Virus record (IMG/VR): IMGVR_UViG_2740892526_000019
Strand: one strand, 5' to 3'
From: a virus
Taxonomy: Duplodnaviria > Heunggongvirae > Uroviricota > Caudoviricetes
DNA length: 10,894 nt
The position numbers were made by a program. Positions 6,001 through 9,000 of this stretch are shown here, in pieces. Numbering within the stretch: position 1 is the first letter of the stretch; every line of letters begins with the position of its first letter.

Positions 6001-9000
6001 GAAGTAACACCGGACAGTCATGCGTAACCCGCAGAAAAAACCCCGTTTGCGGGTTATTTTGAGCGTTTTGCGGGTTACGTGTTGAGCAAATAATAAACAG
6101 GGTGTTTTGCAACATGCTGATATAAAAGGGTAAAAAATGGTTAGCACGCTAAGATAACCCAATAACCCGCATAACCCGCACATGTTTCTATATATATAAA
6201 TTGAGGTGGCAAATGACCAGAACACGCAGAGACAGAACAGAGCCGAAATATAAAGCGTTAGATATAACAGAGCTGGCCTTAAAGGTGGCAATCAGAACGA
6301 TAGACCGACACGTAGGGGAAGGATACGCGAAGGAACATCCCGACCTGATAAGCGCATTCATGACCACAGCAGCGGCAAACTTTGCCACGTTGACAGAACG
6401 GGAGATTGCCGAAGCGGAACAGGTAACAACCATCAACGTTAAAACCGGAGAGGTGGAATCATGACAGCACAGATAGCGGCTTACGGGCGGCTGGTGGACG
6501 ACCCGCAGGTAAAACAGACCAGTAAGGGCACACCGATGACGCTGGCGCGTATGGCGGTATCGTTGCCATGTAGTCAGGCGCAGGATGGGCAGGCGACGTT
6601 ATGGCTATCGGTCATCGCATTTGGTAAGCAGGCCGACTTCCTGGCTAAACATCAAAAAGGCGACGTTGCCAGCGTATCCGGCACGATGCAGGTCAGCCAG
6701 TGGACCGGACAGAACGGGGAAACGCGGCAGGGTTATCAGGTTATTGCAGACAGCGTAATCAGTGCCCGTGCGGCACGTCCTGGCGGGAACAGACGCAAAA
6801 CCACAGGCACACAGGGTAATCAGCCACCAGCGGGAGGCGATGACCCTTACGGTGACGGTATTCCGTTCTGAGGGGGTGGCGATGGTACATGACCGCATAG
6901 CGGAAGAACTCGAGGCGAAAGGCTTTTACCGGAGGGCGGCGGCGCGATGGGGTGAAGTCATGCTGCTGGTGGAGACAGACAAGGAACGGCATCAGGTTAC
7001 GATGCGACGGCTGGAATGTTCCAGGAAGGCACAGAAGCCACCGGAGCCGCCGGATAACTTCGGAGACCTGAGAAAGGCAGTCGATCGCACTTATGCTGAA
7101 ATGGGTATAGATGGTGTAAGCGATGAAATATGGCGTAATTACCCAGACAGCTAATCAACAGCCGGAGAAATCCGGCTTTTTTTGCACCAGTTGAAACGGT
7201 ATGGCGCATTACCGGGTTTTCGTCACGGTCAGGCATAGTTACTATCTGAAACAAACAGACACAACAGAGGAAAAAACAATGCCGATGAAATTTGATGAGA
7301 TATTAAAACAGCGTGATAAATACCATGCTGACAACATGGAGACGATGAGCATCAATGATTACCGCGCATTCCTGGAGACGGGCGCACTGATTGAAAAGGA
7401 TCAGCATGGTTTTGTGAGATGTGCTCTGTCCGGTGAAATGCTGGCGGTAAATCCTGAACAGATAGATGCATTGATAGAATTTCTGAAAGGGATCAGGGAC
7501 TGAGCACGCATACAGCCGGAGCAATCCGGCTTTTTGTCATTTTTTGTAAATTATTTGTTCGTGGTTGTTCCACGTTGTTCACTGACAGGATCGGCATATT
7601 TTACCCGAACTGAATCATGAGTATTCTCGCCCGTGGTGCCAGGACGCTGGGGCCACTTTCCCGCCTGTTAATGTGCTCGCCAATATTCATTACCAGGCGG
7701 GAAAACGATCGGTGCGATTGCTGATTTCCTTATGAAAAACGGTTGAGTTTTTGCCGCGTCCTGGAGTTCCTTACTTAACCCCAGGACTTTTTTTTATGCC
7801 GAGAATAATCGAATTACGCCAGCAGAAAACCGCCATTAAAAATCAGATGCGCGACATGCTGGAGAACGCGGAAAAAGAAAACCGCAGCCTTAACGATGCA
7901 GAGGGCGCAAAATTTGACGAATTACGCGCTAAAGCTGAATCCCTCGATAAAGACATTTCCCGCCTTGAAGCCATTGCAGACGAAGAGCGCAGCAAGCCAG
8001 GTAAAAGCAGCCAGACCACTGACCCGGCAGAACTCCGCAACTACATCCTGACAGGTGAAACCCGCGCATTAAGTACAGGCGTTCCCGCTGATGGTGGTTA
8101 TACCGTTATCCCCGAACTGAACACCGAAATCATGCGAATGCTGACGGATGAATCCACCATGCGCCGCATCTGTACCGTGAAGAAAATCAGCAGCAACGAG
8201 TTTAAGCAGCTTGTTTCCGCTGGCGGTGCGACCGTTAACCACGGTGAAGAGGGTAAGACACGCGAACAGACCAGCACCCCGCAGATTAACGAGGTGAGCA
8301 TTAAGCTGTATCCGGTCTATGCGTACCCGCGCACCACACAGGAAATCGTGGATTTTTCCGATGTGGACATCCTTTCATGGCTGACGGGTGAGATTGGCGA
8401 CACCTTCACGGAAACCGAAGAAAGCGATCTGGTTGTGGGCGACGGTGACAAAAAAGCAAAAGGTTTTTTATCCGTACCCCGTGCAGAGAAGAACGACAAA
8501 GAGCGTGATTTTGGTACGTTGCAGGTAATTAAACCTTCCGAATCTCTGGCGTGGACATCTGCGGACCCGCTGATCGACCTGAAATTTGCATTACGTAAAA
8601 AATACCGCAAAAACGCGGTCTGGGTGGTTAACTCCACGACGGCGGCAAAACTTCAGAAGGTGAAGAACGCGAACGGTGATTACATCTGGCGCGACCGTTT
8701 ACAGGCGGGTGATCCTGATACGTTGCTGGGCCTTCCGGTCGAATATCTGGAGTTTATGCCTGATAACGTTATTGCCCTGGGTGACTTCAAACGCGGTTAC
8801 TACATTGTTGATCACGAAACAGGTGTTCGCACCAGACCGGACAACCTCACAGAGCCGGGTTTCATCAAAATTTTCACGCAGAAATATTTAGGCGGTGGCG
8901 TGGTGGATTCGAACGCGATCAAGATTCTGGAACTGCCACAGGACGACGATTAACAGCATACAGAAGGGGCTTAAAAGCCCCTTTAGTGTTTTATGGGTGA

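Follow-up and report, generated by a model that had tools for sequence, protein, structure and literature searches.

We analyzed the junction between the early and late genes of a capsid-forming satellite, where a single small open reading frame (ORF) lies between two near-identical hairpins. The cassette is contained in a 10,894-nucleotide stretch of DNA (IMG/VR virus record IMGVR_UViG_2740892526_000019), hereafter the window, whose coordinates equal those of loci L001 and L002 minus 1901. At 100% identity, the 521 bases around the cassette match E. coli O157:H7 Sakai and EDL933 as well as numerous further O157 genomes, and the Sakai annotation of this region, located between roxA and phoQ, reads “prophage Sp7; untypable.” Judged by this identity, the window is Sakai Sp7, which is to say the satellite EcCIEDL933, the published prototype of those phage-inducible chromosomal islands that form capsids (cf-PICIs). 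As set out below, the satellite family is mosaic, and we consider it probable that the cassette forms an optional single-gene module where its early and late genes meet, with one copy of the junction terminator on either side.

The left part of the island carries, in order, an integrase, an AlpA-type helix-turn-helix (HTH) gene, small genes, DUF4222, a primase (DUF927), a small gene, a single-stranded DNA-binding protein (SSB), and pchE. The right part begins with the 74-residue hypothetical ORF and continues with the HK97-type capsid, protease, portal, head closure protein, head-tail connector, HNH, TerS, and TerL; tail genes are absent from the EcCIEDL933 annotation. All features of the junction are on the + strand. 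The last gene of the early (replication) block, pchE (ECs_1588, 6882–7154), is a PerC-family regulator by annotation and by its match to Pfam PerC (E = 3e-45), and is expressed in uninduced cells and acts on host genes. It is followed by the first predicted junction terminator, recognized by repeat and fold (copy 1, 7158–7183; stem 7160–7166/7171–7177, loop GAAA, U-run to 7183), a cassette leader (7184–7278), the ORF itself (7279–7503; ECs_1589, WP_001132080), which encodes a small acidic protein of the phrog_1957 family with a predicted α/β structure, and the second predicted terminator, recognized in the same way (copy 2, 7512–7535; stem 7514–7520/7525–7531, loop GCAA, then UUUU). Beyond it lie the leader of the capsid (late) operon (7536–7795), which starts with the element TTTGTAAATTATTTGTTCG (7543–7561), and the annotated HK97-type major capsid protein gene (7796–8953), the first gene of the packaging operon. 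The latter is gene 1786 in the literature, so that the ORF, counted from the published numbering, would be gene 1785.

Results

Two Copies of One Predicted Terminator Bracket the ORF

The two hairpins share the pattern ACAGCCGGAG[A/C]AATCCGGCTTTTT at 7158–7181 and 7512–7535. Copy 1 (ACAGCCGGAGAAATCCGGCTTTTT, 7158–7181) and copy 2 (ACAGCCGGAGCAATCCGGCTTTTT, 7512–7535) are identical at 23 of 24 nucleotides and are spaced 354 nt start to start. Even when up to three mismatches are tolerated, the window contains the pattern as first described at these two places alone, and none of 200 shuffles matched it. The original prediction had described near-identical terminators with a single mismatch, enclosing one small ORF with its own Shine-Dalgarno sequence; the repeat search of the window bears out the former, and the ORF at 7279–7503, with a GAGG Shine-Dalgarno (7267–7270) 8 nt 5′ of its ATG, is the sole supported gene between them.

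Each copy consists of a 7-bp stem with five G-C pairs, a 4-nt loop, and a U-run on the + strand only, the complementary strand of both hairpins being devoid of one. The two copies fold at −13.4 and −14.4 kcal/mol (z-scores near −3.9). Hairpin 1 begins 6 nt 3′ of the pchE stop codon and hairpin 2 begins 11 nt 3′ of the stop codon of the ORF. In silico, both fit the form of a Rho-independent terminator (a G+C-rich stem-loop with a U-run right after a stop codon), and both are predicted to function as such. A scan of 6800–7900 against Rfam gave nothing near threshold.

Across loci, the variable loop base is A, C, T, or G, yet the loop is always a GNAA tetraloop, a constancy that fits selection on the RNA hairpin. 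The hairpin that corresponds to it in another lineage differs by a paired change (CTGG/CCAG versus CCGG/CCGG). The bare hairpin, AGCCGGAGNAATCCGGCTTTTT, occurs at least 120 times in genome contigs from unrelated phyla (Bacteroidota, Bacillota, Pseudomonadota, and others), against a chance expectation that we estimate at ∼0.3 matches for 21 fixed bases in 596 Gb, and thus appears to be a recurrent terminator form that arises by convergence. Because the hairpin core is such a generic form, homology of the two copies rests on their adjacency, their shared flank, and the comparative data that follow.

The 354-bp Unit Is Present or Absent as a Whole

A search of 5426 complete E. coli genomes with window positions 6882–7800 matched 792 genomes. 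The matches formed discrete classes: full-length alignments, alignments that stop exactly where hairpin 2 does (query position 654, window 7535), two-piece alignments covering 565 instead of 919 bases (354 missing), and alignments that stop where hairpin 1 does (query position 301, window 7182). Strains E110019 (at the same roxA/phoQ chromosomal site), E597, and 25-06685 carry pchE, a single hairpin, and the same capsid leader and operon, with the ORF absent. E2865 has pchE, hairpin, ORF, and hairpin, followed by another morphogenesis module (lambda-like capsid, decoration protein, TerS), and STEC2018-607 has the lambda-like module with one hairpin and no ORF.

In the alignment, the empty site reads ...TAATCACACAGCCGGAGCAATCCGGCTTTTTGTCAT..., and the pairwise BLAST breakpoints fall at window positions 7181/7182, 7509, and 7535. 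Homology with ORF-less islands stops exactly at 7181–7182, and homology with islands that have a different capsid module stops exactly at 7535. DNA unique to the cassette (7184–7511) is present in 539 of the 5426 genomes, all of which pass 80% coverage; coverage is 98–100% in every match listed, at 90–100% identity. The 354-bp unit is discrete and all-or-none. Comparison of related islands, which had been proposed as a check on the original prediction, agrees with it in that exactly 354 bp are missing, and one terminator copy is left, where the gene is absent. The cassette has a GC content of 44.5%, compared to 54% for pchE, 59% for ssb, 51% for the capsid gene, and 51% for the window, a modest difference for 330 nt.

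A second island type (L006, 6876–9659; L007, 6513–8547) has a common left arm, from integrase to pchE plus hairpin. On its right side, the place of the full HK97-type module is taken by genes for a lambda-like major capsid protein and head decoration, a small unknown gene, and sometimes TerS. The combination of a common left arm with different capsid modules indicates that whole morphogenesis modules are swapped at the hairpin.

The Hairpin Marks the Early/Late Junction of a Satellite Family

An exact-match scan of IMG/VR for the hairpin returned 120 loci, ∼95 of which are enterobacterial satellite-like islands. In the IMG/VR islands, six or more types of flank occur to the left of the hairpin and six or more to its right, and they are paired in numerous ways. 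Among those on the left are four PerC allele groups as well as PerC-less islands, in which the hairpin lies ∼100 nt 3′ of SSB; on the right, the leader of cf-PICIs, that of the lambda-like capsid, the cassette, and others are found. The 74-residue ORF is found between two hairpins wherever the IMG/VR locus extends far enough, and L207 and L217 have a single copy matching the exact pattern. By its distribution, the predicted terminator is the early/late junction of a large E. coli PICI-type satellite family rather than the scar of one insertion.

Four alleles of the cassette were distinguished, and the two main groups differ at 20–27% of synonymous sites (synonymous difference pS up to 0.27). 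The ratio of nonsynonymous to synonymous difference (pN/pS) is 0.04–0.17, indicating that the ORF is a real gene under purifying selection. Neither hairpin has been lost from any of the four alleles, and their retention at this level of divergence indicates that terminator identity has been maintained, through function and/or repeated recombination, and does not reflect a fresh duplication.

A neighbor-joining tree of PerC sequences calls for at least five presence/absence changes, as a rough count. The window's PerC clade, which carries the gene, is nested in a group that lacks it, and L244, which lacks the gene and has a loop-A hairpin joined to the cf-PICI leader, is nested in a gene-carrying clade; with this placement and loop A, L244 looks as a recombinant between copy 1 and copy 2 would look. 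The tree indicates both gain and loss, or reassortment at the hairpin, and change in both directions is probable.

The ORF Belongs to a Position-Specific Satellite Family

Two other reading frames at this site were considered and set aside. A 100-residue extension from the in-frame ATG at 7201 has no comparative support, as distant homologs align from the MP... start at 7279, and comparative support is likewise absent for an antisense ORF at 7303–7524. The original prediction had also proposed comparing the protein with profile databases: PHROG gave a full-length match to phrog_1957 (E = 7e-42, residues 1–74, 82-position profile), a family to which PHROG assigns no function, whereas Pfam, NCBIfam, and PADLOC gave nothing above threshold. 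Klebsiella and Serratia homologs match phrog_1957 as well.

A word-based protein search recovered only E. coli sequences with at least 92% identity, truncated fragments aside. An exhaustive HMMER search recovered relatives of 66–106 residues with 35–42% identity, and a profile search gathered 161 proteins, all unnamed, from Klebsiella, Serratia, Raoultella, Citrobacter, Enterobacter, Pectobacterium, Hafnia, and others. One candidate, P0019 (1383 residues, seven matched stretches), was discarded as unrelated, its tandem ∼57-residue repeats inflating the score. In Klebsiella, Serratia, and Citrobacter cf-PICIs, which have no PerC, the homolog is located between the replication genes and the capsid operon on the same strand, and in Klebsiella its left neighbors are the primase and the origin iterons. 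A second E. coli cf-PICI lineage has an 82-residue paralog that overlaps the end of a ProQ/FinO gene and is followed by a different hairpin and the same late leader. The gene directly 5′ of, and overlapping, this paralog encodes a ProQ/FinO-family RNA chaperone (L255, 3197–3978; L256, 3202–3971).

Among cf-PICI loci collected via their capsid protein, 41 of 73 have a family member, always on the + strand and upstream of the capsid gene, usually ending 223–300 nt before it. In several lineages, the stop codon of the gene abuts the late-leader motif with no terminator between them. Three diverse family members used as queries had no match in 50,697 deposited phage genomes. By its distribution across Enterobacterales, the family is satellite-restricted, position-specific, frequent, and dispensable, and is not foreign cargo.

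Antisense genes were observed 3′ of the homolog in Klebsiella (L248, 8299–9072, − strand, 257 residues), Serratia (L251, 8302–8529, − strand, 75 residues), and Citrobacter (L254, 8686–9063, − strand, 125 residues). None of the three products has a Pfam family above threshold, and the 75-residue protein matches the N-terminal part of phrog_17428. These neighbors are likely variable cargo of a pre-capsid hotspot. The Klebsiella 257-residue protein was considered as a Tai immune gene product that would have the small family protein as its anti-Tai partner, encoded in a non-contiguous operon, and this assignment was rejected, there being no match in the phage collection or in PHROG; the E. coli cassette has no antisense partner.

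Earlier mutagenesis of EcCIEDL933, as published, dealt with the packaging module. By our count, the mutated set would comprise the genes from 1786 to terL, leaving the ORF (1785) outside. The “hypothetical gene 1792,” mutation of which reduces EcCIEDL933 transfer, was rejected as a candidate for the ORF, since counting from 1786 makes 1792 the small gene between HNH and terS. When the literature was searched for the protein's accession numbers, its locus tag, and its PHROG family, no paper on it came up, nor did the papers searched contain transcript data for the ORF.

Leader Regions of the ORF and the Capsid Operon

The 3′ 58 nt of the cassette leader show one change between alleles that are 20–27% apart at synonymous sites, and a TACTAT hexamer (7240–7245) is located 33 nt 5′ of the ATG. 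The fold of the leader RNA is not significant (z = −0.99). The conservation and the hexamer suggest a candidate weak or activator-dependent promoter followed by an unstructured 5′ untranslated region.

Downstream of hairpin 2, TGTTC occurs three times after the TTTGTAAATTATTTGTTCG element, at exact 10-nt intervals (7556, 7566, and 7576). Of 79 cf-PICI loci, 72 have the core heptamer of the element, TGTAAAT, no more than 500 nt upstream of the capsid gene, mostly at 212–251 nt, and the heptamer is kept even where the capsid protein is only 64% identical. The conserved element and the TGTTC repeats are probably a late promoter or operator. The leader RNA (7536–7810) has a folding energy of −89.7 kcal/mol (z = −4.09, none of 200 shuffles as stable) and contains a hairpin with 17-bp arms at 7657–7704. 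A further hairpin at 7758–7787, with an AGGA Shine-Dalgarno sequence in its 3′ arm, is followed by T8 right before the capsid ATG, and could act as an attenuator or in translational control.

Predicted Structure of the Protein

A single-sequence AlphaFold (AF2) model was poor (predicted local distance difference test [pLDDT] 57) and was replaced by a model based on a 41-sequence alignment (pLDDT 92.9, predicted template modeling score [pTM] 0.76). In the prediction, three short helices come first, then a sheet of three strands, and last a long helix at the C terminus. Comparison of this model with known folds found no relative. The family is acidic (isoelectric point [pI] 4.5–5.6, net charge −5 to −9), with a pI of 4.9 for the 74-residue protein, which argues against a classical DNA-binding regulator. 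The 74-residue form is without the C-terminal tail of the family.

Other Features of the Island

The non-coding gap 3′ of the primase (5860–6190) contains more than 10 copies of TAACCCGCA/TGCGGGTTA in both orientations, and this repeat-rich gap is almost certainly the satellite replication origin. A Klebsiella cf-PICI has different iterons (GTGAACAC/GTTCACC) at the corresponding place. In EDL933, RefSeq places a frameshifted “trigger factor” pseudogene at window 7123–7238, across the pchE stop codon and hairpin 1, and other strains have small “trigger factor” or “hypothetical” coding sequences over the same stop codon and hairpin. The “trigger factor” annotation looks like an artefact propagated from a misnamed protein.

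Discussion

In the reading that we consider probable, that of an optional one-gene module between two junction-terminator copies, hairpin 1 would end the early/pchE transcript and hairpin 2 the transcript of the ORF, and the hairpins would shield the conserved late control element that begins 8–12 nt downstream. A hairpin common to different modules would also provide a short homology for their reassortment, gain, or loss, either by recombination between co-resident islands or by deletion between the two direct repeats.

The original prediction took the cassette for a moron-like unit with a terminator duplicated on insertion, which we read as a foreign gene that recently landed 3′ of pchE. Exact 354-bp presence/absence with a single hairpin in the empty sites, a GC content below that of the neighbors, and the nesting of the window's PerC allele among alleles of gene-less islands all agree with such an insertion, and the moron-like architecture, dispensability, and lower GC of the unit stand. 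Its foreign origin and recency do not: alleles diverged by 20–27% at synonymous sites still have both hairpins, homologs occupy the same slot in distant cf-PICIs and none was found in the phage genomes searched, and the island has no annotated transposase gene. Nor is near-identity of the terminators a mark of recent duplication at insertion, as many islands in which the gene was never present have this hairpin as their junction. The unit has its own Shine-Dalgarno sequence and a predicted terminator downstream; our scan detected no promoter at the consensus threshold, and the candidate is the TACTAT hexamer in the conserved leader. The finding named beforehand as speaking against an insertion, an ancestral gene with divergent terminators in all islands, is nearly what we observed, with ∼40% identical homologs in the same slot next to different terminators or none, yet not all islands carry the gene. 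A recent foreign insertion is therefore an unlikely origin for the cassette. The further suggestion of an accessory role in defense, anti-defense, or host modulation is in keeping with a location that the literature calls variable; however, no defense or anti-defense family matched.

If the gene is instead ancestral and has only been lost, the empty islands would be deletions generated by recombination or slippage between the direct-repeat terminators. The deep synteny of the gene family, the exact correspondence of the missing segment to the repeat spacing, and the position of L244, an empty island with a loop-A hairpin and cf-PICI leader in a gene-carrying clade, speak for this view. But 8 of 10 empty cf-type sites have loop C, whereas random crossovers in the repeat should often leave loop A; whole PerC clades and PerC-less islands have a single hairpin, other right modules, and no trace of the gene; and the window's own clade looks like a gain. 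Loss as the sole process is possible, though we hold it to be rather unlikely. It is harder still to credit the protein with regulating the capsid operon, whether by binding the late element downstream or by antitermination on the structured leader. The gene is always directly upstream of the TTTGTAAAT element, with a stop codon that abuts the element in many lineages, and the late leader is highly structured with a terminator-like hairpin at its end, yet the acidity of the family, the failure of a search for an HTH or other DNA-binding domain or fold, and the 28 of 72 islands that have the late element without the gene, including close relatives with 99–100% identical capsid protein, make this role quite doubtful. 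Most improbable of all is that the hairpins are sites for a site-specific recombinase, similar to integron attC, rather than terminators. Such sites would fit the breakpoints at the hairpin and the position of a hairpin-forming repeat after a promoter-poor ORF, but a perfect 18-nt hairpin whose GNAA loop varies and whose U-run is confined to one strand is a textbook intrinsic terminator, the same form occurs in unrelated phyla, and the island's sole annotated recombinase is a tyrosine integrase at the far left end.

Several points weigh against an optional module exchanged at its terminators and against the function we propose for its product. The hairpins were collected by exact match, which makes stem variation invisible in that collection, and the PerC tree derives from a short, recombining gene, which is why its count of changes is rough. 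The 24-nt recombination substrate is deduced from the breakpoints, and crossovers in longer conserved flanks would fit similarly. No σ70 promoter reaches the consensus threshold of our scan in 7184–7278. The 74-residue form departs from the consensus at several of the most conserved positions (W39E, H42Q, and T49A) and may therefore act differently from its relatives; the diverged E. coli alleles retain H42. Finally, the functional proposal comes with no domain, fold relative, or partner found. That proposal, our leading one but held with low confidence, is that the protein binds another protein, not DNA, in the conflict between satellite, helper, and host, as helper interference or counter-defense. 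More speculative by a small step is the joint claim that phrog_1957 is a satellite effector with an unseen small α/β fold that binds a protein of helper phage or host and so aids the spread of cf-PICIs and related PICIs, and that the duplicated terminator is a purpose-fit, plug-and-play handle for swapping it. If this were true, satellites could recombine through the short homology of the duplicated junction terminator, trading both the effector and entire capsid modules.

Among capsid-forming satellites, EcCIEDL933 serves as the reference, and the gene lies just outside its mutated set. A satellite-only family confined to one slot in different genera, under purifying selection and without a known fold, is a reasonable candidate for an unrecognized step in satellite-helper-host relations. 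A single terminator hairpin also marks where replication blocks, the optional ORF, and capsid modules of two or more kinds join in many combinations; this picture of the junction is useful for the annotation and engineering of PICIs, and does not overturn current understanding.

Comparison with Known Systems

Morons, which Juhala et al. and Hendrix et al. are said to have described in 2000, are reportedly extra transcription units between conserved genes of lambdoid and HK97-like phages. The cassette resembles them in being one small dispensable gene, present or absent between the same neighbors, with its own predicted terminator downstream and a lower GC content. It differs in that the unit is in a satellite and not a phage, that its family keeps to a single slot in the different genera and is missing from the phage genomes deposited, that the terminators on both sides duplicate the junction hairpin resident in this family of islands, and that the promoter is only a candidate. 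The cassette is also unlike that of an integron, having no attC (a 57–141 nt imperfect palindrome with core sites) and no IntI/attI platform, and instead an 18-nt perfect hairpin with a U-run.

PICIs and cf-PICIs have variable regions “before and after the packaging operon” that are expected to hold immune systems (10.1101/2025.02.11.637232), and Tai systems occupy an accessory region “downstream of pri” (PMC11364771). Similar to these regions, the site lies between the replication module and the packaging operon, and its content varies among related islands. Unlike immune-system accessory regions, however, it encodes a protein that no PADLOC defense model matches, and the Klebsiella 257-residue neighbor, with no match in the phage collection or PHROG, was taken not to be a Tai homolog, a reading for which no Tai sequence was compared directly. 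In contrast to variable cargo, the gene seems to recur as a fixture on the border of the variable region.

Small satellite-specific interference proteins that bind helper-phage proteins include Ppi, PtiA/B/M, and CpmA/B of the Staphylococcus aureus pathogenicity islands (SaPIs) and Rpp of EcCICFT073. The 74-residue protein is comparably small, satellite-specific, and encoded beside the packaging module. No sequence or fold similarity to anything solved was found for it, and since cf-PICIs supply capsids and terminase of their own, the targets already known may not be relevant.

Conserved boundary (linker) sequences are said to lie at the module junctions of mosaic lambdoid phages, in the model attributed to Susskind and Botstein and in work reportedly by Clark et al. 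in 2001. The junction hairpin is likewise a short conserved sequence exactly where unrelated modules join in many combinations. In contrast to the lambdoid linkers, the linker here is a functional-looking intrinsic terminator that, in one configuration, is duplicated around one gene.

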